Below are positions 1 through 60,433 of a DNA stretch of 64,000 nucleotides, piece by piece; position 1 is the first letter of the stretch; every line of letters starts with the position of its first letter. This stretch comes from Armatimonadota bacterium. GTDB taxonomy: Bacteria > Bacillota > Desulfotomaculia > Desulfotomaculales > Nap2-2B. Made by a program: the position numbers and the translations under genes. The stretch spans positions 643-64,642 of the forward strand of contig JAIMBK010000009.1 of the NCBI GenBank assembly GCA_023511535.1, given 5' to 3'. A model generated the notes under the pieces. It worked only from the letters and a program-made list of their open reading frames with translations. It searched no databases and was not told where the DNA came from.

Positions 1-1058
1 CCTATGCAGTCGACGGGGACGTCTATTTTGACATCAGCTCCTTTCCCGCCTACGGCAAACTTTCCCGGCGGTCTCCGGACGAAATGCTGGCCGGGGCGCG
101 GGTGGAGGTGAACCCCCGGAAAAAGAACCCCCTGGACTTCGCCCTCTGGAAGGCGGCCAGGCCTGGCGAACCTTCCTGGCCCAGTCCCTGGGGGCCGGGG
201 CGGCCGGGCTGGCACATCGAGTGTTCGGCCATGTCCTTAAAATACCTGGGGGCTAATTTTGACATCCACGGCGGAGGCATGGACCTCATTTTCCCCCACC
301 ACGAAAATGAAATCGCCCAGTCCGAAGCGGCCACCGGGCAGCCTTTCGTGCGCTACTGGATGCATAACGGTTTCATCACCGTCAACCAGGAAAAAATGTC
401 CAAGTCCCTGGGGAACTTCTTCCTGGTGCGGGACGTCCTGAAAAAATTTTCGCCGCTGGTGGTGCGCTTCTTTTTGTTATCGACGCACTACCGCAGCCCG
501 CTGGATTTCGACGACGAAAAAGTGGAGTCCGCCGGCCGGGGCCGGGAACGCCTCAAAAACAGCCTGCAACTGGTCGGCGAGGCCCTTCGCGGGCAGCAAC
601 GGACAGAAATGACCGACCGGGACCGGGACTGCCTGGCCAGGCTGGAGACCCTCCGCCGGCAATTTGAAGGAGCCATGGACGACGATTTCAACACCGCCCT
701 GGCCTTAAGCTACTGCTTTGAGCTGGCCAGGGAAGCAAACAGCTACCTGCAGGAAGAAACTGCTCCCGCCAGGGACGTGCTGGCCAAAATTTCCGGACTG
801 TTTGCGGACTTCAACGAAGTGCTGGGGCTGTTCAAAACCGGTGCGCAAGGGGAAATCGTGCTCGCGGAGCGGCCCGGAGCGGATGCGGAAGCGGGGGAAC
901 TGGTGCAGTCCTTAATCGAACTGCTTCTCCAGGTCAGGCAGGAGGCCCGGGCCAAAAAAGACTGGACTACCGCCGACCGGATCAGGGACGGCTTAAAAGG
1001 GCTGGGGATCGTCATAGAAGACACCCCCCAGGGCCCCCGCTGGAAAAGCAGGGGTTAG
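1..1058 (+). CDS. cysS: cysteine--tRNA ligase, C-terminal part (5' end outside window)
   Basis: Frame is open from the window edge to TAG 1056-1058. Class I aaRS signatures [28 protein letters not shown] and KMSKSLGN. Confidence 0.95.
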
Positions 1059-1147
1059 GGATTAGGAGTTAGGGTAGATACTCTTGTATATATCTTTATG
1101 AAGAGGAAGTAAGTCATTGTGAACAGTTCCCGGATATTGTCGAAATT

Positions 1148-3789: not shown

Positions 3790-5313
3790 ATGTTTTTGGA
3801 TACCCCTTCGCAAAAAGAATATCTGGCGTTAAGCAAACATTTCAACCTGATTCCGGTAAGCTACGAGTGTTTTGCCGATACGCAGACGCCGATCACCGTT
3901 TACTGGAAGGTTTCCGGGGGGCGCCCGGGCTGCCTGCTGGAGAGCGTCGAGGGGGGCGAAAGGGTGGCCCGCTACTCCTTTCTCGGTATCGATCCTTTCC
4001 TTGCCTACAGTCACCGGGGAAAGACGGGCCGGGTGTGGAAGCAGGAAGGCGGCGCCGTTCAGAAGGTGGCCGGAAATCCCTTTGAAATTTTGGAAAACCT
4101 GATCTCCTCCTTCCGGGTGCCCGAATTGGAACTGCCCAGGTTTTTCGGCGGCGCCGCCGGGTATTTCGGGTACGATTTAGTGCACTGGCTGGAAAAGCTG
4201 CCTTCCGGAAACAAAAATGATTTGCCTTTCGACGACTGCTCCTTCCTGTTTTGCGGTACGGTGCTGATTTTCGACCACGTCCGGCACACGCTGCGCATTG
4301 TGGTAAACAGCTTTCCGGGAGATTCCCCGCAGCGGGCTTATACCCGGGCCGTCCGGAAAATCGAAGAGGTTTTGCGCGTTTTAAACGGCCCGGAACGGGA
4401 AAGTATTCCGTTATTAAACGGCGGCGCAAACTGCCGGGGGAGCCCGGACCCGCATTTTTCGCCGGCCGGATCCAATTTCACCCGGGAGAGTTTTCTAGAC
4501 GCGGTAAAAAGGGCCAAGGAATACATCCGGCAGGGAGAAATTTTGCAGGTTGTGCTTTCCCAGCGCTTTTGCCGGCCTTTTGCCGGGGATCCCTTTTTGG
4601 CTTACCGCCGCCTGCGCGCTGTGAACCCGTCTCCTTATTTATATTTCTTGAACTTCGGGGAGCTGGCGGTGGCGGGCTCTTCCCCGGAAATGCTGGTGCG
4701 GGTGGAGGGGGAAGACGTGGAAACCAGGCCGATTGCCGGCACCCGCCCGCGGGGCGGGACAAAGGATGAAGATGAGCGGCTGGCCCGGGAATTGCAGGCC
4801 GACCCCAAGGAAAGGGCCGAGCACGTCATGCTGGTTGACCTGGGACGGAATGATCTGGGGCGGGTCTGCGCGGCCGGAAGCGTTGAAGTTCCGCAGTTTT
4901 TAACGGTAGAAAAGTATTCCCACGTCATGCACCTGGTGTCTTCCGTCAAGGGCCGCCTGGCGCCCGGCCGGACGGCTTTTGATGCCTTGAAAGCCTGTTT
5001 TCCGGCAGGAACCGTCTCCGGCGCGCCAAAGGTGCGGGCCATGGAAATTATTGCCGAACTCGAACCGGCCGCGCGCGGCCCTTATGCGGGGGCCATCGGC
5101 TATATCGGCTTTAACGGCAACCTGGATACGGCCATTACGATCCGGACCGTGCTTTTTTCCCGGGGTAGCGCGTATGTCCAGGCCGGCGCGGGGATCGTCG
5201 CCGATTCCGACCCGGCCGGAGAATACGCGGAGACGGTGAAGAAAGCGCAGGCTTTGCTGGAAACCCTGGAAAGAATGCAAGGGGGTGGTTCAGTTGCTGG
5301 CCATGATCGATAA
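3790..5313 (+). CDS. trpE: anthranilate synthase component I
   Basis: Chorismate-binding family motifs [54 protein letters not shown]. The start may be TTG 3796, which has better spacing to GGAGG. Confidence 0.95.
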
Positions 5314-5872
5314 CTACGACTCCTTTACTTACAACCTGGTTCAATACCTGGGCCGGCTGGACGCGGAGGTGCGGGTCTGGCGCAACGACCAGATCAGCGT
5401 GCTGGAACTGCTGGCACTCAATCCTGCCCGGGTGGTGATTTCCCCGGGGCCGGGGACGCCGGACAGGGCGGGGATCACCCTGGAGACCGTCCGGCGGCTG
5501 GCCGGCAGCGTCCCGATCCTGGGCGTTTGTTTGGGCCACCAGGCCATCGGCCGGTGTTTCGGCGGCCGGATCGTCCAGGCCGCCCGCCTGATGCACGGCA
5601 AAACCTCGCTGATTTACCACGACGGCCGGGGCATTTTCCGGGGGATTCCCTCCCCTTTTAAGGCCGCCCGCTACCATTCGTTAATTGTGGAGAAGGAAAG
5701 CCTGCCTTCCTGCCTGGCGATCTCGGCCTGGACGGCGGAAGGGGAAATCATGGGTTTGCGCCACCGGGAGTTCACCGTGGAGGGGGTCCAGTTTCACCCG
5801 GAATCAATTTTAACGGAACACGGTTTGCAGTTGCTCCGGAACTTTCTCGCTTACCAAAGCGGCAGATGGTGA
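5285..5872 (+). CDS. trpG: anthranilate synthase component II (glutamine amidotransferase, TrpG/PabA)
   Basis: [16 protein letters not shown], catalytic GVCLGHQ, FHPES. The true start is probably TTG 5294 or ATG 5303, overlapping the trpE stop. Confidence 0.92.
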
Positions 5873-12646: not shown

Positions 12647-14059
12647 ATGGTGAAGGATCACCGGGAGCAGGTGCAGGAACACGAACGGGTACAAAGGCAA
12701 GAACAGGAAAAGGAACAGGAACGGGAACGGGAACGGCAGCCGGGACAGAAATATCTCGTTTTGACCTACGGCTGCCAGATGAACGAACACGATTCCGAAG
12801 TAATGGCCGGGATTCTGGAAGAAATGGGCTACCGGCCGGCAAAGCGCAGGGAAGAGGCGGACGTTATCCTGGTCAATACCTGCTGCGTGCGGGAGACGGC
12901 CGAAAACAAAATTTACGGATTGCTCGGGGAGTTCCGCCGGCTGAAAATGAACCGGCCCGGCCTGCTGATCGGCGTAGGCGGCTGCCTGACCCAGCAGGAA
13001 GCGGCGGCCAAAAAAATCCGGGACCGCTTCCCTTACGTCGACCTGATTTTCGGCACGCATAATCTTCCCCGCCTGAGAGAATTGATCGAACAGGCAAAAG
13101 AGAGCCGCCGGACGGTGGTGGAACTGCTGGACCGCTCCGAACCGGCGCCGGAGGGCCTGCCCATCCGGCGGGCCAGCGGCGTTAAAGCCTGGGTAGTGAT
13201 CACCTTCGGCTGCAACAATTTTTGCACCTACTGCATAGTTCCGTACGTCCGCGGCCGGGAGTGCAGCCGGCCACCGGAGAACATCCTGGCCGAGATCAGG
13301 GACCTGGCGGCGCAGGGGTATAAAGAAGTGACGCTGCTCGGTCAAAACGTTAATTCTTACGGCCGGGATCTCCCGGGGAACGTGGATTTTGCCGGACTTT
13401 TAACGGAAGTCAACCAGATTAAAGGGATCGAACGCATCCGGTATACCACTTCCCACCCCCGGGACTTTTCCCCCCGCCTGATCGAAGCGATTGCCCGGGG
13501 CGAAAAGATTTGCGAGCACGTCCACCTGCCCGTGCAGGCGGGAAGCAACCGCGTTTTGCGCATGATGAACAGGGGTTACACCCGCGAAGACTACCTGGCG
13601 CTGGTGGAAAAAATCCGGGAGGCCATTCCGGGAGCAGCGCTTACCACCGACATCATGGTCGGCTTTCCCGGCGAAACGGACGAAGATTTTGCGCAAACCC
13701 TCGATCTGGTGGAAAGGGTCCGCTTTGACAGCGCCTTTATGTTTATTTACAACATCCGCCCGGGTACGCCGGCCGCGCGCCTGCCCAACCAGGTGAAAGA
13801 CGAAGTAAAAAGAGCCAGGATTAAAACGCTGATCGAAAAGCAAAATCAAATCACCAAAGAGATCAATATAAATGAAGAAGGGAAAATTTACCGCCTCCTG
13901 GTGGACGGCGAAAGCAAGACCAACCCCCGGATGTTAAGCGGGCGAACCCGCACGAACAAGCTGGTCATTTTCCCCGGCCCGCCGGAATTGGTGGGAAAGT
14001 TCGTTGATGTAAGGATCACCAGGGGGAAGCTGACTCATTTAGAAGGGATTAGTGAATAG
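12647..14059 (+). CDS. miaB: tRNA-2-methylthio-N6-dimethylallyladenosine synthase
   Basis: UPF0004 N-domain [12 protein letters not shown], radical SAM cluster [14 protein letters not shown]-terminal TRAM domain. The N-terminal roughly 33 aa are low-complexity ([12 protein letters not shown]). Confidence 0.9.
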
Positions 14060-14077
14060 GGAGTAGTGAATAGGGAT
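14050..14077 (+). repeat. tandem 14-nt duplication (two heptamer pairs) spanning the miaB stop codon
   Basis: TAGTGAATAGGGAG (14050-14063) then TAGTGAATAGGGAT (14064-14077). The miaB TAG is at 14057-14059. Confidence 0.8.
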
Positions 14078-19589: not shown

Positions 19590-19668
19590 GAATTGGGGGG
19601 TGGGAATTAGGAATTGGGGTTTGTATTGTACCCCCAATTCCTGGTTCCTGATTCCCAATTCCCAATTA
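19588..19668. repeat. long imperfect hairpin built from GGGAATT / AATTCCC heptamer units
   Basis: G-rich arm GGAATTGGGGGGTGGGAATTAGGAATTGGGG, loop TTTGTATTGTA, C-rich arm CCCCCAATTCCTGGTTCCTGATTCCCAATTCCCAATT. The inner stem AGGAATTGGGG/CCCCAATTCCT is perfect. Confidence 0.8.
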
Positions 19669-24295: not shown

Positions 24296-24320
24296 CCCCC
24301 TCATCCCTCATCCCTAATCC
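24296..24320. repeat. CCCTCAT/CCCTAAT heptamer triplet
   Basis: CCCTCAT CCCTCAT CCCTAAT at 24298-24318. This is the reverse complement of the ATTAGGG/ATGAGGG family. Confidence 0.75.
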
Positions 24321-31498: not shown

Positions 31499-31556
31499 AA
31501 GCACAAAGGCAGAAGGACAAAGGCACAAAGTTAACAGGCATAAAGGGACAAAGCTT
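31499..31556 (+). repeat. degenerate tandem 7-8-mer array (GNNCAAAG type)
   Basis: GCACAAAG GCAGAAG GACAAAG GCACAAAG TTAACAG GCATAAAG GGACAAAG, starting 1 nt after the lepB stop. A partially complementary CTGTGCCCTCTGCGGCTTTGTC lies at 31593-31614. Confidence 0.75.
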
Positions 31557-31631
31557 ACAGCTGCAGAGGCGTTTCATTCTTTCTCAGGTCTTCTGTGCCC
31601 TCTGCGGCTTTGTCAGGTGGGTGGGGGAAAA

Positions 31632-32587
31632 TGGAGAGCCAGTGGTTTGCCGGCCACATGGCCCGCGCGAAAAGGGTCATCAGGGAAAAGCTAAAATTAG
31701 TCGACGTGTTGATTGAGCTGGCTGACGCCAGAATTCCTTTGAGCAGCCGCTGCCCGGCGATTGCAGGCGTGCTGAAGGTCAAGCCCGGCCTGCTCGTTTT
31801 AAATAAGGCCGACCTTGCCGACCCGGAGTGGACCGGGCAATGGGTCAAATGGTTCCGCGCCCGGGGGGTAACTGCCATCCCATGCAATGCAGTGACCGGG
31901 CAGGGCGTGGCAGAAATCCTGCGGGAAATTTCCCGTTTAGCTTCCAGGAAAAAGAAAGAGAAAAAAGCCGGGAAATTCTCCGGACGAAACGATAATCTAC
32001 CATCCCCCGGTTTCCGGCCTCCCGCCGGCGGCCTCAGGTTCCCGACCTCCAACCTCCGACCTCCAACCTCCGACCCCCGGCCTCCAACCTCCATGATCGT
32101 GGGCATCCCCAACGTAGGCAAATCCACGCTGGTCAACCGTCTTGCCGGGAAAAGGGCGGCGCGCACCGGTCAGCTTCCCGGCTTGACCAGGGGGGAGCAG
32201 TGGATCAGGATTGCCGGGAAGCTGGAACTGCTGGATACCCCGGGGGTGCTGTGGCCGAAGCTGGCGGACCGGGAGGTTGCCCTTAAGCTGGCCGTTACGG
32301 GGGCCATTAAAGAGGAGTTGTTCGACGCCGGGGAGGCAGCCGCCTGGGTGCTGCAATGGCTGCTGGAGAACAAAAAAAGCGACCTTGCCGGGCGTTTCGG
32401 TCTGGCGGAGGAATTTTTGGAAATTGAACCCCTTTTGGAAGCGATTGGCAGAAAAAGGGGGTTTCTTGCCATCGGCGGGGTCGTAGACCGCCGGAAAACA
32501 GCTTTGCACATCTTGAAGGAATTCCAGTCCGGCAAGCTGGGCAGGCATACCCTGGAATATCCAGTAAATACAGGGGATAGGGGATAA
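31632..32587 (+). CDS. rbgA: ribosome biogenesis GTPase A (circularly permuted GTPase YlqF/RbgA) with repeat-encoded insertion
   Basis: WFAGHMARAKR, G4 LNKADL preceding G1 GIPNVGKST, DTPGVLWPK. Codons at about 31975-32092 are a Pro-rich low-complexity insert. Confidence 0.88.
32044..32092 (+). repeat. seven tandem RACCTCC heptamers inside the rbgA reading frame
   Basis: GACCTCC AACCTCC GACCTCC AACCTCC GACCCCC GGCCTCC AACCTCC, immediately before the ATG codon of MIVGIPNVGKS. Confidence 0.9.
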
Positions 32588-32625
32588 ATGATAGAGAATG
32601 GGGATGGGGATTTTGGTTTTGGGTG
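32573..32625 (+). repeat. GGGGATA/GGGGATT-type degenerate heptamer array spanning the rbgA stop
   Basis: GGGGATA GGGGATA AATGATA GAGAATG GGGATGG GGATTTT GGTTTTG GG. The rbgA TAA is at 32585-32587. Confidence 0.75.
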
Positions 32626-32769
32626 TTTTTAGCCGCAGGTGGTTGTTTTTTTCTTTCTGTAAGGAAGCGGAACGTTTACCCGGGCAAATCCAGCCGGAAA
32701 AATTCTTTCTGGTTAGCAGGGATTTGGACTTTCAGCTCGAAAAAATACTTATGGAGGATTAAACCCGCC

Positions 32770-33382
32770 ATGCCGGATCTCTTTCGTTACGAAAATGAGC
32801 TGCGCGCGCAGGGTTTTGCTTTAATTGCCGGGGTGGACGAGGCGGGGCGCGGCCCTCTGGCCGGTCCGGTGGTGGCCGCGGCAGTCATTTTACCGGAAAA
32901 AGAAAAGATAAATGAGGTAAATGATTCCAAAAAACTTTCCGCCGGGATGCGGGAAAAACTGGCGGCCTGCATCAAAAGGCTTGCCGTTGATTGGTCAATC
33001 GGTCTGGCAACCGTTCAGGAAATAGAGCTGCTCAACATCCACGGCGCGTCGCTGCTGGCCATGCGGCGGGCGGTGCAATCCCTGGGGATCGCCCCCCACT
33101 GCGTGATTGTGGACGGCCGTTTTGCGATTCCCGGTCTGAGCGCCGCCCAGTACGCCGTTACCGGGGGGGATGGTCTTTAGCGCTTCCATCGCGGCGGCTT
33201 CCATTCTCGCGAAGGTGACCAGAGACCACTTGATGCAGCTTTTCCACCAGCTTTACCCGGATTATGGCTTTGCACAGCACAAAGGTTACGGTACGGCCCT
33301 GCACCTGCAGAAGCTGTCCGCCCACGGCCCGTGCCCGCTCCACCGGGCGGGCTTCGGCCCGGTGAAGAAAATCAGGGGATAA
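32770..33382 (+). pseudogene. rnhB: ribonuclease HII, interrupted by a 1-nt frameshift near 33163-33173
   Basis: The N-terminal part (GVDEAGRGPLAGPVVAAAV ... DSKKLS ... VTGGD) ends at TAG 33178-33180. The C-terminal part ([16 protein letters not shown] ... HKGYGT ... HR) continues in the +1 frame from 33170. The shift lies in GGGGGGGATGG. Confidence 0.8.
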
Positions 33383-34891: not shown

Positions 34892-34916
34892 AATTAAAAG
34901 AATGAGGATAAGTGTT

Positions 34917-34984
34917 GGAATTAGGGAGTTACTGCCTTTCCCTAACCCCCAATCCCCAATCCCCAATCCCCAATCCCTAATTCC
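34917..34984 (+). repeat. hairpin with (CCCCAAT)n heptamer array between nuoC and nuoD
   Basis: GGAATTAGGGA (34917-34927) pairs with TCCCTAATTCC (34974-34984). The loop carries CCC TAA CCCCC AAT CCCC AAT CCCC AAT CCCC AAT CCC. The complementary strand is a G4-capable GGGGATT array. Confidence 0.85.
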
Positions 34985-38595: not shown

Positions 38596-38872
38596 AATAA
38601 TTATTCAGGGACATAGGCATTGAGGCACAAAGGTATAAAGATCAGAGCAGAAAAGTACAGACACTCCAGGGTTGGATTTGCAAAGCAGGGTTGGCAAGTT
38701 CAACCTGGAATTAACAAGTTAGGTTTTCGGTACGGATAGTTAAATCAGGAGTCAGGGAGATCAGGAGATTGCGATGCGAATATCTTTCCGACTGTAAAAG
38801 ATTTCCGGCTAAGGCCCTCCGACCTCCGACTTCTGACATCCGACTTCTGATCATGGAGGTGTTATAAGCTAA
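38596..38872 (+). repeat. 277-nt repeat-mosaic spacer inside the nuo operon (nuoK-nuoL)
   Basis: Contains TTCAGGGACATAGGCATTGAGGCACAAAGGTATAAAGATCAG (related to the left end of copy A2), GGGTTGGA units, and heptamers GACCTCC GACTTCT GACATCC GACTTCT (38821-38848). Confidence 0.8.
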
Positions 38873-40795
38873 ATGGTTGAGTATGCAATGAACCATGCCT
38901 GGCTGATTCCGCTACTGCCAACCCTGGCTTTTGTTGCCATCATCTTTTTGACCAGGCCATGGCCTTTGTTAAGCGCCTTGATTGCCGTCGGCGCCATGCT
39001 TACCTCCTGCTTTTTCGCCACTTTCACGGCCATCGGGGTTTTCACCAGCCCGGAATTGACGGAAAAACCCCTGGTTTACGCCGTAAACTGGTTTAACATG
39101 CCGGGGATGGAAATCAACGTGGGGATTTTGCTGGACCCCGTTTCCGCCATGATGATGTTTATGGTCACCCTGGTGGGTTCGCTGATCTTCATTTACGCCA
39201 TCGGTTACATGCAGGACGATCCCGGCTACTCCGTCTTTTTCTCCTACGTCTCCCTGTTTGCCGCCTTTATGCTTTTGCTGGTGGCTTCCAGCAGCCTGGT
39301 GGAGATGTTTGTGGGGTGGGAAGGCGTCGGCCTGTGCTCGTACCTGTTGATCGGCTTCTACCAGCACAAGATCTCGGCCCGGGAGGCCGCCAAAAAGGCC
39401 TTCATCACCTGCCGGGTGGCTGATTTCGGCCTGCTTTTGGGCATGCTGCTGCTCTTCTGGAACTTCGGCACGCTGGACTTCGCGGCGCTGGCCGAAAAAA
39501 TCCCTCACTTCCAGCAGTACAACGTTTCGGCGGCCACTCTGGCGCTGATTGCCTTCCTGGTGTTCTGCGGGCCGATCGGCAAATCCGGGCAGTTTCCGTT
39601 GCACGTCTGGCTGCCGGACGCCATGGAGGGTCCCACCCCGGTCAGCGCGCTGATCCACGCGGCGACCATGGTCGTGGCCGGGGTTTACCTGGTGGCGCGG
39701 GTAATGTTCCTTTTCCACGAGGTTCCTTCCGTCATGCAGCTGGTGGCCGTCACGGGCGGCTTTACGGCCCTGTTTGCCGCCACCATTGCCGTCACCCAGC
39801 GGGAGATTAAGCGCATCCTGGCCTACTCCACGATCAGCCAGATCGGTTACATGATGCTGGCCCTGGGGGTGGGCAGCCTGACCGCGGGCATGTTCCACCT
39901 GTGGACGCACGCTTTCTTCAAGGCGCTCCTCTTTTTAGGCGCCGGCAGCGTGCTGGTGGCCCTGCACCACAAGGCGGACGTCTGGGAAATGGGCGGTTTG
40001 CTTAAAAAGATGCCCATCACCGGCTGGACCTTCCTTGTCGGCTGCATCGCCATCGCCGGGATCCCGCCCTTCGCCGGCTTCTGGAGCAAAGACGAAATCC
40101 TGCTGGCTACCCTGGAATCCGGCCATTACGTGCTTTTCGCCATGGCGGCCTTTACCGCCTTTTTGACCGCCTTTTACATGTTCCGGCTGTTCTTCCTGGC
40201 TTTCACCGGGGCGGAAAACCCGGCCAACCACCCCAAAGAGTCGCCCTGGGTGATGACCGTTCCGCTGATTTTCCTGGCTATATTTTCCCTTGTCGGCGGC
40301 TGGGTGGGGACCCCCTGGGCGAACGTCTGGAGCGAATGGATTTTCTTCGGCCACCCGCACCATGGGGAGCCCAACTATATGGTGATGATCGGCTCGGTTG
40401 TGCTGGCCGGACTGGGAATTTACCTGGCCTACTACTTCTACTGCGCGGACCGGGAAAAAGTGAAGGTCAGGGAACTGGCCCGGCGCTACCAGGGTATTTA
40501 CACCTTGCTTTACAATAAATATTACATCGACGAAATCTACCTGTGGCTGAACCACACGCTGGTGGACGGCGCCGCCAAAATCTTTTACCTGTTCGATATT
40601 TACGTGGTGGACGGCATCATCGTCAACGGCGTGGCGGCCATCACCGGGCTTTTCGGCGAAGGCCTGCGGGTCACCGCCACCGGCCGGCTGCAGAATTACG
40701 CCCTGGTCTTCTTCCTGGGCGTGCTGGCCGTTTTCGTGGTGCTGGCATTTACCAGCCCGCTCCTGGCCGGCCCGATTTGGGGAGGTGTGCGGTAA
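38873..40795 (+). CDS. nuoL: NADH-quinone oxidoreductase subunit L
   Basis: ND5/Mrp antiporter-like family (WEGVGLCSYLLIGF, AMEGPTPVSALIHAATMV). ATG 38873 lies about 14 nt after GGAGG. Confidence 0.93.
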   Translation: MVEYAMNHAWLIPLLPTLAFVAIIFLTRPWPLLSALIAVGAMLTSCFFATFTAIGVFTSPELTEKPLVYAVNWFNMPGMEINVGILLDPVSAMMMFMVTLVGSLIFIYAIGYMQDDPGYSVFFSYVSLFAAFMLLLVASSSLVEMFVGWEGVGLCSYLLIGFYQHKISAREAAKKAFITCRVADFGLLLGMLLLFWNFGTLDFAALAEKIPHFQQYNVSAATLALIAFLVFCGPIGKSGQFPLHVWLPDAMEGPTPVSALIHAATMVVAGVYLVARVMFLFHEVPSVMQLVAVTGGFTALFAATIAVTQREIKRILAYSTISQIGYMMLALGVGSLTAGMFHLWTHAFFKALLFLGAGSVLVALHHKADVWEMGGLLKKMPITGWTFLVGCIAIAGIPPFAGFWSKDEILLATLESGHYVLFAMAAFTAFLTAFYMFRLFFLAFTGAENPANHPKESPWVMTVPLIFLAIFSLVGGWVGTPWANVWSEWIFFGHPHHGEPNYMVMIGSVVLAGLGIYLAYYFYCADREKVKVRELARRYQGIYTLLYNKYYIDEIYLWLNHTLVDGAAKIFYLFDIYVVDGIIVNGVAAITGLFGEGLRVTATGRLQNYALVFFLGVLAVFVVLAFTSPLLAGPIWGGVR

Positions 40796-50252: not shown

Positions 50253-52160
50253 ATGAAATCATTGATGAAGAAGTTTAAATATACCGGCGAAGAACCCGGC
50301 TCCCGGTATCAGGGCGAGAAGCAGTTGGAGCGCCAGGTCAATGCTCTTTACGGCCTGGTCGCCAATTTATACGGCACCGATAAGCTGGTGCTAAGGGCGG
50401 GAAAGGTCAACGCGTTACAGCTGATGCGCTCGGAACACCTGGGGGAGCGCGTGCTGGCTTTGCAAAGGCTGGTTTTTGAAGATCCCACCATCGAGCAAAT
50501 TCCTGCGGCGAGGGAAATCCCGTCAATTTTAGGGTTGATTGAAGAAGAAATTGCCGAAATTCTAGCCCGGCGAACGGTGGAAGAGGAACTGGAAAGAAAG
50601 ATCAACGAGAAATTGCAGCAAAGGCATAAGGATTACGTACAGGAAATAAAAAACCAGGTACTGAAGGAAAACAGCGGCCCGGAAAACGCCCAAACGTTAA
50701 AAAAGCTGGCTATTTTTGAAAAGATGGAGCAAAAAAAGCTGGCCTGTTCGGCCATGGCCGTTTTGCGCCCGGCCAGTTTTGCGGAAATCGTGGGCCAGGA
50801 GAGAGCGGTAAAGGCCCTTTTGGCGAAAATGGCCTCTCCGTTCCCCCAGCACATCATCCTTTACGGCCCGCCGGGAGTAGGAAAAACAACCGCCGCCCGG
50901 CTGGCCCTGGAGGCGGCAAAAAAAATGGCCGCTTCCTCCTTCCGCGAGGACGCCCCCTTTGTGGAAGTGAGCGGGGCGACTCTGCGCTGGGACCCCCGGG
51001 AAGTTACCAATCCCCTGCTGGGCTCCGTTCACGATCCGATCTACCAGGGGGCCCGTCGCGATCTGGCCGAAAGCGGCGTACCCGAGCCGAAACCGGGCCT
51101 GGTTACCGAAGCCCACGGCGGGGTTCTGTTTATTGACGAAATCGGCGAAATGGACCCCCTCCTGCAGAACAAACTTTTAAAAGTCCTCGAAGATAAACGG
51201 GTATTTTTTGAGTCGTCGTACTACGACCCGCACGATCCCAATGTCCCCCAGTACGTCAAGAAATTATTTGAAGAAGGGGCACCGGCGGATTTCATTTTAA
51301 TCGGCGCCACCACCCGCGACTGCGAAGACATTAATCCCGCCCTGCGCTCCCGGTGCGCGGAAATCTTTTTCGAACCGCTGACCCCGCGGGACATCCGGCA
51401 GATCGTCGCCCAGGCGGCCCAAAAGCTCGGCGTCGCTCTGGAGGAAAAGGTTCCCCAGGTCATCAGCCAGTACACAATCGAAGGCCGCAAGGCCGTGAAC
51501 ATCCTGGCCGATGCCTACAGCCTGGCCTGGTACCGTCAGCAGGGGGAGCAAGCGATCCGGATTACAGTCGATGATGTCTACGAAGTGATCCAGTTGAGCC
51601 GCCTGGTCCTTTGCAATATCCGGAAAGTGTCGGCCGCCCGGGAAGTGGGCCGGATCTTCGGTCTGGGCGTGGCCGGCTACCTGGGTTCTCTAATTGAAAT
51701 TGAGGCCGTTGCCTTTCCCGCCCGGGAAGCGCGGCGGGGGAATCTGCGCTTTAACGACTCTGCCGGGTCGATGGCAAAGGATTCGGTCTTCAATGCTGCT
51801 TCCGTAATCCGGAAAATTTCCGGAAAGGACCTGGCGGATTACGACATCCACGTCAACGTGGTGGGCGGCGGGCGAATCGACGGACCTTCGGCCGGCCTGG
51901 CAATTTTCCTGGCCATCTTAAGCGCTCTGGAGGAGCGTCCGGTTCCCCAGGACCTCGCCGTGACCGGGGAATTGTCCATCCAGGGCCGGGTCCGGCCGGT
52001 GGGCGGCATTCCGGAAAAGATTTACGGGGCGCGCCAGGCGGGGATTAAGAAAGTGCTTGTTCCGGCCGAAAATTTACCCGAGGTGCCTTCTGATTTGACC
52101 GATCTGGAGGTCGTTCCGGTGGCCGCCGTGGAAGAAGTGCTGGCCCATGTTTTAAATTAG
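50253..52160 (+). CDS. Lon-family ATP-dependent protease (LonB/LonC-like, no N-terminal LAN domain)
   Basis: Walker A GPPGVGKTT, Walker B VLFIDEIGEM. C-terminal Lon proteolytic domain with DGPSAGLAIFLA (Ser) and GIKKVLVP (Lys). Confidence 0.82.
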   Translation: MKSLMKKFKYTGEEPGSRYQGEKQLERQVNALYGLVANLYGTDKLVLRAGKVNALQLMRSEHLGERVLALQRLVFEDPTIEQIPAAREIPSILGLIEEEIAEILARRTVEEELERKINEKLQQRHKDYVQEIKNQVLKENSGPENAQTLKKLAIFEKMEQKKLACSAMAVLRPASFAEIVGQERAVKALLAKMASPFPQHIILYGPPGVGKTTAARLALEAAKKMAASSFREDAPFVEVSGATLRWDPREVTNPLLGSVHDPIYQGARRDLAESGVPEPKPGLVTEAHGGVLFIDEIGEMDPLLQNKLLKVLEDKRVFFESSYYDPHDPNVPQYVKKLFEEGAPADFILIGATTRDCEDINPALRSRCAEIFFEPLTPRDIRQIVAQAAQKLGVALEEKVPQVISQYTIEGRKAVNILADAYSLAWYRQQGEQAIRITVDDVYEVIQLSRLVLCNIRKVSAAREVGRIFGLGVAGYLGSLIEIEAVAFPAREARRGNLRFNDSAGSMAKDSVFNAASVIRKISGKDLADYDIHVNVVGGGRIDGPSAGLAIFLAILSALEERPVPQDLAVTGELSIQGRVRPVGGIPEKIYGARQAGIKKVLVPAENLPEVPSDLTDLEVVPVAAVEEVLAHVLN

Positions 52161-52180
52161 GGGTTAGGGGTCAGACCTCC
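52157..52180 (+). repeat. heptamers TTAGGGG TTAGGGG TCAGACC TCC overlapping the protease stop codon
   Basis: TAG 52158-52160 is part of the first unit. Two repeat families (TTAGGGG and GACCTCC) are juxtaposed. Confidence 0.75.
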
Positions 52181-60402: not shown

Positions 60403-60433
60403 GTCGTCGGACGTCAGACGTCAGTCGTCGGAC
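60403..60433. repeat. heptamers GTCGTCG GACGTCA GACGTCA GTCGTCG GAC directly after the stop codon
   Basis: Starts 1 nt after TAA 60400-60402. The reverse complement belongs to the GACNTCY family seen at 38821-38848. Confidence 0.75.

Follow-up and report, generated by a model that had tools for sequence, protein, structure and literature searches.

How does a tandem repeat with a seven-nucleotide unit persist in the middle of a gene that, to judge from its orthologues, the cell can hardly do without? The question is raised by rbgA (ylqF) in a stretch of 64,000 nucleotides (nt) from contig JAIMBK010000009.1 of assembly GCA_023511535.1 (positions 643 to 64,642, forward strand), hereafter the window, which is deposited as Armatimonadota bacterium and placed by GTDB among the Desulfotomaculia of the Bacillota. 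Directly upstream of its P-loop codons, this gene carries an array of heptamers that is open to translation in frame. The answer that we favour, with a probability of roughly 0.7, is that the array is a translated heptanucleotide microsatellite (NNCCTCC, 13 units, 91 nt) and a tolerated passenger rather than a switch, and that it is probably near-neutral to the cell that carries it.

A heptamer array in the reading frame of rbgA

An earlier, sequence-only reading of the window listed seven tandem heptamers at 32044-32092 (GACCTCC AACCTCC GACCTCC AACCTCC GACCCCC GGCCTCC AACCTCC), and this list is exact. Tandem Repeats Finder (TRF) reports the array at 32045-32093 with period 7, 7.0 copies and 80% matches (score 63), and scores it also as period 14 (76) and period 21 (77). 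When the whole window was shuffled with dinucleotides preserved, in 500-nt blocks that keep local composition, a period-7 score of 63 was reached in none of 200 shuffles, the maximum being 40. The array is a head-to-tail repeat, beyond chance, of at least three copies of a unit in the range of 5-11 nt. As to its extent, the seven heptamers of the sequence-only reading stand, whereas their 5' boundary does not, for the repeat reaches further 5' into six more, decayed units of the same register (Table 1). This register was set by counting sevens backward from the ATG of Met155; in it 21 of the 30 core positions agree with CCTCC, compared with 8-14 in the other six registers, and shuffles of the decayed 42 nt gave a mean of 13.1 core matches and reached 21 once in 2000. 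Over the decayed part, TRF detects in the relative L001 (GCA_964467965.1) a higher-order repeat of 28 nt, or four units. The repeat in rbgA is 13 units and 91 nt long, and its 5' half is the older and decayed one. The unit is free of stop codons in all six frames, as it must be if the array is to be read through, and its three phases yield the seven-residue repeat PTS(N/D)(L/P)RP. The array lies 462 nt into the 957-nt gene, 45% into the gene.

The protein interrupted in this way begins MESQWFAGHMA from its ATG start codon and scores 291.4 bits with TIGR03596, the GTPase_YlqF equivalog (cutoff 208.2), in a match that is broken in two because the insert interrupts it. Its motifs stand in the permuted order G4 (NKxD), G5, G1 (GxPNVGKS) and G3 (DTPG); GIPNVGKS (residues 158-165) and DTPG (202-205) occupy invariant columns of our alignment A1, as do G8, H9 and M10 of the CR1 motif GHM, whose His9 is catalytic in RbgA (PMC6821245). 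The top match among solved structures is B. subtilis YlqF (1PUJ, E 2.7e-73). An AlphaFold2 model computed from a 20-sequence alignment (predicted template modelling score, pTM, 0.79) has the two-domain fold of a GTPase domain and a C-terminal helical bundle, and Foldseek aligns it to 1PUJ with a target-normalised template modelling (TM) score of 0.94 and a root-mean-square deviation of 2.4 Å, with further matches to 6PPK_W and 9BSL_V. Both 6PPK and 9BSL are structures of RbgA bound to the 45S particle. In B. subtilis, RbgA is an essential housekeeping factor whose GTPase domain embeds among the rRNA helices where H69 and H71 of the mature subunit sit, and by orthology the product described here would likewise be an essential GTPase with a role in 50S assembly (PMC6821245).

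The insertion lies at the permutation joint

Residues 116-154 of the protein form the linker FSGRNDNLPSPGFRPPAGGLRFPTSNLRPPTSDPRPPTS, a segment that runs FSGR...RPPTSMIVGIPNVGK; MIVGIPNVGKS comes immediately after it. In HMMER, the alignment with 1PUJ breaks up into two stretches, residues 2-105 and residues 142-311, and leaves out what lies between them. The spacing from G4 to G1, measured from NKxD to GxPNVGKS in 114 of the best 120 homologues, is 70 residues in 98 of the 114 and 62-71 in 105, and at 101 residues the window protein has the longest spacing of all; the exceptions are its six closest relatives (P0002-P0007, 80-94 residues) and the pair P0013/P0014 (80 and 85 residues). Taken together, the ortholog alignment, the split match and the spacing of 101 against 70 bear out the suggestion of the sequence-only reading that the segment has no counterpart in B. 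subtilis RbgA. Its estimate of about 39 residues needs qualification: the segment 116-154 is real, and the net gain is 31 residues rather than 39, since some of the segment takes the place of the short linker of ordinary RbgA.

In the AlphaFold2 model, residues 114-148 have a predicted local distance difference test score (pLDDT) below 50 and no secondary structure, and a strand at 153-158 then leads into the P-loop. The segment is predicted to be an unstructured loop that leaves the GTPase core intact, and it is placed between G5 and G1, where it had been proposed to lie, on the connection from alpha5 to beta1. In the YlqF/YawG family, circular permutation has produced the order G4-G5-G1-G2-G3: the helix that follows G5 corresponds to alpha5, with which a canonical GTPase ends, and the strand that precedes G1 corresponds to beta1, the canonical N-terminus. 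Hence the insert sits on the connection created by the permutation, at what are topologically free termini in an ordinary GTPase, and this joint should be the best-tolerated place for extra residues. Such a position agrees with the observation that heptamer arrays inside open reading frames (ORFs) persist mainly at the protein periphery (MacGregor, PMC4679880).

Array length varies between relatives, always in frame

Nine distinct alleles, all from uncultured Bacillota, were found as assembled contigs (16 in total) among NCBI metagenome-assembled genomes (MAGs), Logan assemblies, JGI, ENA and a genome collection. Scans of metagenomes with an exact 24-mer over the junction of array and P-loop, or with protein-derived patterns, returned no close alleles. 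All nine have the array at the same site of rbgA and all are in frame. In every allele the NNCCTCC heptamers end at the codon that precedes [M/I/L][I/V]VGIPNVGKS, and a constant leader of about 26 nt separates the conserved Gly-Lys codons from the units. The number of units is polymorphic between these related genomes (13, 10, 10, 8, 7, 7, 5): the window has 13, L001 has 10, as do L006 and L007, L004 has 7, L009 has 7 including three perfect GCCCTCC, L008 has 8 clear units including three perfect GGCCTCC in addition to an 8-nt remnant, and L010, L014 and L015 have 5. The runs of three perfect units in L008 and L009 show that local expansion has been recent. The counts 13, 10 and 7 all equal 1 modulo 3, as the divisibility of 26 + 7n by three demands, and L008, with a total of 90 nt, is in frame thanks to one extra nucleotide. 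These counts and this compensation support the earlier proposal that the open frame reflects selection on total insert length.

Between the window and L004, identity over 735 nt of flank is 99.2% (6 differences), and yet a clean gap of 42 nt, or six units, separates them. In their 3.7-kb alignment, 72 of 255 differences fall at 31900-32100 and most of the others at two intergenic array regions. This contrast implies that the array turns over much faster than point substitutions accumulate, with only in-frame outcomes seen. Flank substitutions against L001 are distributed over the three codon positions as 8, 10 and 38, and the excess at third positions indicates purifying selection on both halves of rbgA. 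In simulated slippage, a gain or loss of one or two units leaves products of 133-243 residues without G1-G3, whereas a change of three units leaves an intact protein. Thus the simulation agrees with the earlier claim that a single-unit change ruins the product, which loses its P-loop half; that such a loss would be lethal in this organism is to be expected from orthology.

The linker upstream of the array (31900-32100) is itself a mosaic: that of L004 (AAAGGCCGGGAGGCCGGGAAACCC...) matches that of L006, whose own flanks have an identity to the window of only 92%. The pattern suggests recombination over a short tract, or else mutation that recurred at the array.

How the array could have arisen and persisted

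The genome of this lineage is unusually rich in arrays of period 7 and period 8, which occupy most of its intergenic spacers, and we propose that in rbgA this tendency hit a site where the product tolerates extra residues. Between alpha5 and beta1, these residues would make up a flexible loop on the protein surface, enriched in Pro, Thr, Ser and Arg, without disturbing the GTPase core. Slipped-strand events would alter the length of the array; changes of one or two units would disrupt the frame and cost an essential protein the half with the P-loop, and the survivors would be net three-unit changes (21 nt, 7 residues) or changes compensated by another indel. If only such changes survive, the array is a passenger and a mutational liability, not a switch. 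Its origin may have been growth in place from a single GACCTCC seed, which is plausible given that the outgroup L019 has a single GACCTCC directly before the same ATG (LTSM).

Several observations weigh against this reading. First, all array-bearing lineages, to as little as 63% protein identity, have kept the most 3' stretch of the insert, about 13 residues of the form (L)R(F/P)PT(S/P)x(L/F)RPPT(S/A), and they encode its prolines by different synonymous codons (CCT, CCC, CCG, CCA), which argues that part of the insert is under constraint at the protein level. This stretch may have acquired a function, or it may include the ancestral start of beta1, RPPR, seen as RPRPPRCM in Desulfotomaculum-type proteins. 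Second, the linker of L004 resembles that of L006 though its flanks match the window, a hint of recombination besides slippage. Third, P0013/P0014 have a different, glycine-rich insert of 10-15 residues at the same site. Fourth, in a neighbour-joining tree with the linker masked, the array-bearing lineages form one clade with a bootstrap value of only 34%, so that origin and age are uncertain. A clade of all insert-bearing lineages together with the insert-free P0008-P0012 has 100% bootstrap, and the tree is equally compatible with a single origin, with loss in P0008-P0012 and with homology to the insert of P0013/P0014. Fifth, L014 has a five-unit array in rbgA and no other array in 5 kb, and the link between the rbgA array and a genome-wide spread of arrays is therefore not strict. 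Finally, a low pLDDT from a 20-sequence alignment is no proof of disorder, and the allele series consists of assembled contigs alone.

Other explanations of the array

The best-placed alternative concerns the origin of the array and is compatible with its present behaviour as a passenger: the array could have arrived on a small array-bearing segment or through recombination. We regard this as doubtful, although rbgA itself offers a precedent. At its 3' end (32564-32693), the window and L001 have a block of about 130 nt that contains AGGGGAT/GGGGATT heptamers and TTTTGGT repeats and has ATCCA on both sides. This block is absent from L006 and L008, where the sequence that begins at 32694 in the window directly follows TLEYP; in L004 there is an insertion here too, of different sequence. 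The block recodes the C-terminal tail from AGKILSG to VNTGDRG, each followed by a stop codon, and array-bearing DNA has thus rewritten a second part of rbgA. The presence of a GACCTCC-type unit in the spacer array at 38816 and the linker mosaic between strains point in the same direction. On the other hand, the single GACCTCC of L019 is a plausible seed, individual alleles have expanded different unit variants in place (GGCCTCC and GCCCTCC, three times each), and the rbgA array is flanked by neither terminal repeats nor a target duplication.

Alternatively, the loop could be a lineage-specific extension that is selected for what it does, for example contact of a basic, Pro-rich segment with pre-50S rRNA or a partner, or coupling of the synthesis of RbgA to EF-P through RPP motifs. 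The synonymous conservation of its 3' stretch speaks for this, as do its persistence in lineages diverged to about 63% protein identity, its net positive charge (five Arg, two Asp) and the position of the RbgA GTPase domain among rRNA helices (PMC6821245). Nevertheless, the length of the insert ranges from 5 to 13 units and its 5' part varies freely, the closest relatives differ by 14 residues in length with nothing else changed, 98 of the 114 homologues work with a spacing of 70 residues, AlphaFold gives the segment no structure, and the RPP in question may be no more than the ancestral RPPR(C)M of strand beta1 seen in Desulfotomaculum-type sequences. We therefore consider selection for a function of the loop as a whole unlikely.

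Phase variation had been raised by the sequence-only reading as a further possibility: gain or loss of a single heptamer would switch RbgA on and off and create a heritable, reversible heterogeneity in ribosome assembly. The type of sequence is that of contingency loci, a non-triplet simple sequence repeat (SSR) in an ORF with seven near-perfect units; a slip of one or two units does remove the P-loop half, and a coding heptanucleotide tract has evolved such a role in experimental Pseudomonas (bioRxiv 10.1101/2024.05.01.592015). However, the comparative evidence goes the other way. None of the nine alleles on 16 contigs toggles the frame, all differing by three-unit steps or being compensated; the same alleles recur in different samples (P0002, for instance, on five contigs); and no truncated half-protein occurs among the 120 best database matches. 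In addition, the array lies 45% into the gene rather than near its 5' end, and the gene encodes a universal housekeeping GTPase that is probably indispensable, as it is in B. subtilis, and is neither a surface nor a restriction-modification gene. The proposal is thus not supported, and we hold it to be very unlikely.

A variant of the same idea is still less probable. In the four closest alleles, the array adjoins cc-ATGA-tc, and ATGA at 32093-32096 supplies a TGA in the -1/+2 unit frame, so that a slip of this kind would end at a TGA overlapping the ATG of Met155, and reinitiation there would yield two pieces. An overlap of TGA and ATG is a classic arrangement for stop-start coupling. The protein would be cut precisely where the circular permutation made its joint, with G4-G5 on one piece and G1-G3 and the C-terminal domain on the other; if this were true, the pieces might reassemble and the array would be a reversible fused/split switch of an essential GTPase, not a lethal fuse. 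Against it, the ATG of Met155 is preceded by no Shine-Dalgarno (SD) sequence, and ATGA is absent from L008, L009 and L010.

Finally, that the segment is an assembly error, a pseudogene, a split gene or a site of translational bypass is scarcely credible, even though the window comes from a MAG, repeats are error-prone in assembly and the neighbouring rnhB needs recoding, because independent NCBI MAG, Logan, JGI and ENA assemblies all show the array at the same site, every allele is open despite its change in length, which a bypassed or split gene would not need, the segment contains no stop codon, SD sequence or hairpin, and flank differences fall mostly on third codon positions, a mark of purifying selection on both halves. 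Bypass was rejected on the same ground of frame conservation, and an intein or intron was dismissed, the segment being too small for either and devoid of motifs. A role of the array as an RNA hairpin was rejected as well, since RNA structure at the array does not exceed chance (fold z = +1.36) and no inverted G-rich partner was found for it. That the mRNA, with its seven copies of ACCUCC, serves as an anti-SD mimic or SD sponge is speculation.

Arrays elsewhere in the window and its relatives

By TRF, the window has 10 arrays of period 7 where 1.8 are expected and 5 of period 14 where 0.17 are expected. Period-7 arrays other than that of rbgA sit in spacers, and most of them follow an intergenic rule of lying within about 50 bp of a stop or start codon, to which the rbgA array does not conform. 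The spacer arrays of AGGGGAT, TTGGGGA and TTAGGGG have G-tracts of the G-quadruplex type. In rbgA, the template strand reads GGAGGTY, with GG runs and one GGGGG, and falls short of the Rehm-type pattern of at least four tracts of at least three G.

The array at 38816-38850 is located shortly before the SD sequence and the start codon of a 640-residue ORF at 38873; its first two units are exact in the GACCTCC register, and the window has no other exact match to CCTCCNNCCTCC outside rbgA. The sequence-only reading had counted two spacer sites as members of the same family as the rbgA array. The exact units justify this for 38816-38850, whereas 52171-52180 is a single GACCTCC beside the TTAGGGG array. 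Four spacers (19593-19667, 34905-34981, 38744-38850 and 31516-31614) contain a G-rich array followed by its C-rich complement. Examples of these inverted pairs are GGGAATTAGGAATTGGGG ... CCCAATTCC...CCCAATT and three copies of ATCAGGAG followed by five of CCTCCGA/CTTCTGA, and a transcript of such a pair could form a long imperfect hairpin between genes. In 38744-38850, the C-rich arm stops a few bases before the GGAGG SD sequence of the next gene.

Relatives with long rbgA arrays have spacer arrays too. The octamer array GCACAAAG of the lepB-rbgA spacer recurs in L001, L004, L006 and L008 at varying copy number and is absent from L011 and L019, where this spacer is 13-15 nt long. The insert-free or outgroup loci L011 (no insert), L016, L019 and L020 have no arrays of this kind over 8-17 kb. 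A search of the available literature found no report of such heptamer arrays in Bacillota.

Table 1. Positions of rbgA, its motifs and insert, and the tandem arrays of the window.
Feature	Position	Strand	Remark
rbgA/ylqF coding sequence	31631..32587	+	318 residues; circularly permuted ribosome-assembly GTPase, order G4-G5-G1-G2-G3
G4 motif NKAD	31802..31813	+	residues 58-61; invariant in alignment A1; anchor of the G4-to-G1 spacing
Helix	31907..31966	+	residues 93-112; AlphaFold2; equivalent of canonical alpha5, last structured element before the insert
Linker F116-S154	31976..32092	+	39 residues, rich in Pro, Thr, Ser and Arg; from alignment A1 and spacing
Six decayed heptamers	32002..32043	+	same register: ATCCCCC GGTTTCC GGCCTCC CGCCGGC GGCCTCA GGTTCCC
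Seven well-preserved NNCCTCC heptamers	32044..32092	+	translated as the seven-residue repeat PTS(N/D)(L/P)RP
Strand beta1 and P-loop (G1), M155-IVG-IPNVGKS	32093..32125	+	G158-S165 invariant; strand 153-158 in the model
AGGGGAT heptamer array	32572..32611	+	TRF period 7, 6.0 copies; overlaps the last five codons and stop of rbgA
GCACAAAG octamer array	31501..31553	+	lepB-rbgA spacer; TRF period 8, 7.0 copies
CCTCCGA CCTCCGA CTTCTGA CATCCGA CTTCTGA array	38816..38850	+	intergenic; TRF period 7, 4.1 copies
AGGGGTT spacer array	1050-1074		G-rich on the sense strand; directly after a stop codon
AGGGATTAGTGAAT period-14 array	14044-14076		G-rich; likewise after a stop codon
CCCAATT spacer array	19633-19667		C-rich; directly before a start codon
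CCCTCAT spacer array	24298-24320		C-rich; directly before a start codon
TCCCCAA spacer array	34939-34981		C-rich; directly before a start codon
TTAGGGG spacer array	52157-52171		G-rich; directly after a stop codon
Short tandem array	60405-60433		period 7, 8 or 14 class
Octamer arrays	12362, 30235, 31501, 38744

Lineage and neighbouring genes

A MAG protein that bears the label Armatimonadetes bacterium has the same sequence as the rbgA protein (P0001; 100% identity), whose relatives are all from uncultured Bacillota. The gene order rplS-lepB-rbgA-rnhB-nuoA is kept in relatives and is of the Bacillota type. Judging by these relatives and the gene order, which are Desulfotomaculia-like, the MAG is probably mislabelled or misbinned. 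In L001, fragments of an ISL3-family transposase (4650-5322) follow rbgA where the others have rnhB and nuoA, and synteny is therefore broken directly downstream of the array-bearing 3' end of rbgA.

A separate observation concerns the next gene, rnhB (RNase HII; 32770-33382, + strand), which lies in two frames with a shift site at 33163-33181 and is split by gene callers into 136 and 70 residues. Frame 0 closes with ACC GGG GGG GAT GGT CTT TAG, and the rest of the protein, its conserved C-terminal half, is found in the +1 frame. The window shares the site GGGGGGGATGGNCTTTAGC with L004, L006/L007, L008, L019 and L020, with no variation except at the wobble base of GGN, and in these lineages the rbgA flanks are 57-99% identical to the window. 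Within the candidate shift sequence GGGGGGGAUGGUCUUUAGC, a +1 shift at CTT-T-AGC (one T skipped) gives TGGDGLSASI, which is collinear with the intact rnhB of L011 (TGGDGRSASI) and of L014 (GGG TTA AGC, which reads GLS). The +1 frameshift signal of prfB consists of YTT_TRA_C and an upstream SD-like sequence (PMC3711429); the layout in rnhB is like it in its SD-like G-run, CUU, in-frame stop and following C, and differs in that the stop is UAG. From its sequence, then, the site resembles a conserved prfB-like +1 frameshift site, and our search of the available literature found no report that links rnhB to frameshifting.

What the array means

As a passenger, the rbgA array would be a clean natural case of a non-triplet microsatellite that persists in an essential, universally conserved gene, where only three-unit steps survive among the alleles and the repeat sits where the topology of the protein tolerates it. 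The alleles also constitute a natural linker-length experiment at the permutation joint of a circularly permuted GTPase, with 70 to 101 residues from G4 to G1. For practical purposes, the array offers a hypervariable typing marker for strains of this uncultured Bacillota lineage, and annotators should note that heptamer arrays such as this one are real coding sequence. The wider context may outweigh the rbgA array: the lineage appears to be one of Bacillota in which heptamer arrays stand next to stop and start codons, as in Xanthomonas and Nostoc, and the arrays encroach on coding sequence at two places in rbgA. Heptamer SSRs themselves are known; what is new is the host gene, the position at the permutation joint and the comparative series with three-unit steps.

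Comparison with known systems

Heptamers are the commonest class of long SSR in prokaryotes, mostly intergenic and sometimes read through in ORFs (PMC4679880, PMC4692102). The prokaryotic heptanucleotide SSRs of Mrazek and co-workers, as these two papers summarise them, are similar to the rbgA array in their head-to-tail 7-nt unit, their strain-variable copy number, their abundance in particular lineages and their attribution to replication slippage. In the same summaries, such SSRs are overwhelmingly intergenic and the genic ones usually have units that are multiples of three, whereas the rbgA array has a 7-nt unit in the middle of an essential gene and in frame. Among SSR contingency loci, the evolved GGTGCCC switch in pflu0185 of Pseudomonas fluorescens is also a coding heptanucleotide tract in which a change of one unit shifts the frame (bioRxiv 10.1101/2024.05.01.592015). 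In pflu0185, however, strains differ in whether the frame is open, and the gene is regulatory and dispensable, while rbgA is an essential housekeeping gene without an out-of-frame allele.

At the protein level, the insert is like Pro/Thr/Ser-rich linkers in general and like the G5-G1 connection of eukaryotic Lsg1 in being flexible, of low complexity and variable in length. Residues 197-496 of Lsg1 (6n8n_W) align to residues 23-303 of the query, which implies a connection of comparable length in that region. Unlike the rbgA insert, these linkers are not encoded by a nucleotide heptamer array.

The intergenic arrays of the window obey the placement rule that Rehm et al. (2015, PMC4692102) describe for GGGNATC and GGGGA(C/T)T in Xanthomonas and Nostoc: on the sense strand, units rich in G follow stop codons (AGGGGAT, AGGGGTT, TTAGGGG) and units rich in C precede start codons (TCCCCAA, CCCAATT). 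With its C-rich sense strand, the rbgA array has the orientation that transcripts tolerate, and in this it resembles the Rehm-type repeats; it differs from them in its uncultured Bacillota host, in having GG runs only instead of a G3 motif and in being coding, the Rehm type being under-represented in ORFs. The heptamers known as short tandemly repeated repetitive (STRR) sequences in cyanobacteria are a kindred comparison for G-rich heptamer repeats. Finally, the TAACTGA repeats in ORFs of Beggiatoaceae and cyanobacteria are translated in frame as seven-residue repeats, LSVISYQ as against PTSNLRP in rbgA, and are likewise tolerated where the fold is undisturbed (MacGregor 2015, PMC4679880). In those cases, the repeats mostly lie in hypothetical proteins or at the extreme N- or C-terminus, whereas the array in rbgA lies in mid-sequence and is peripheral only in the topological sense, at the permutation joint.

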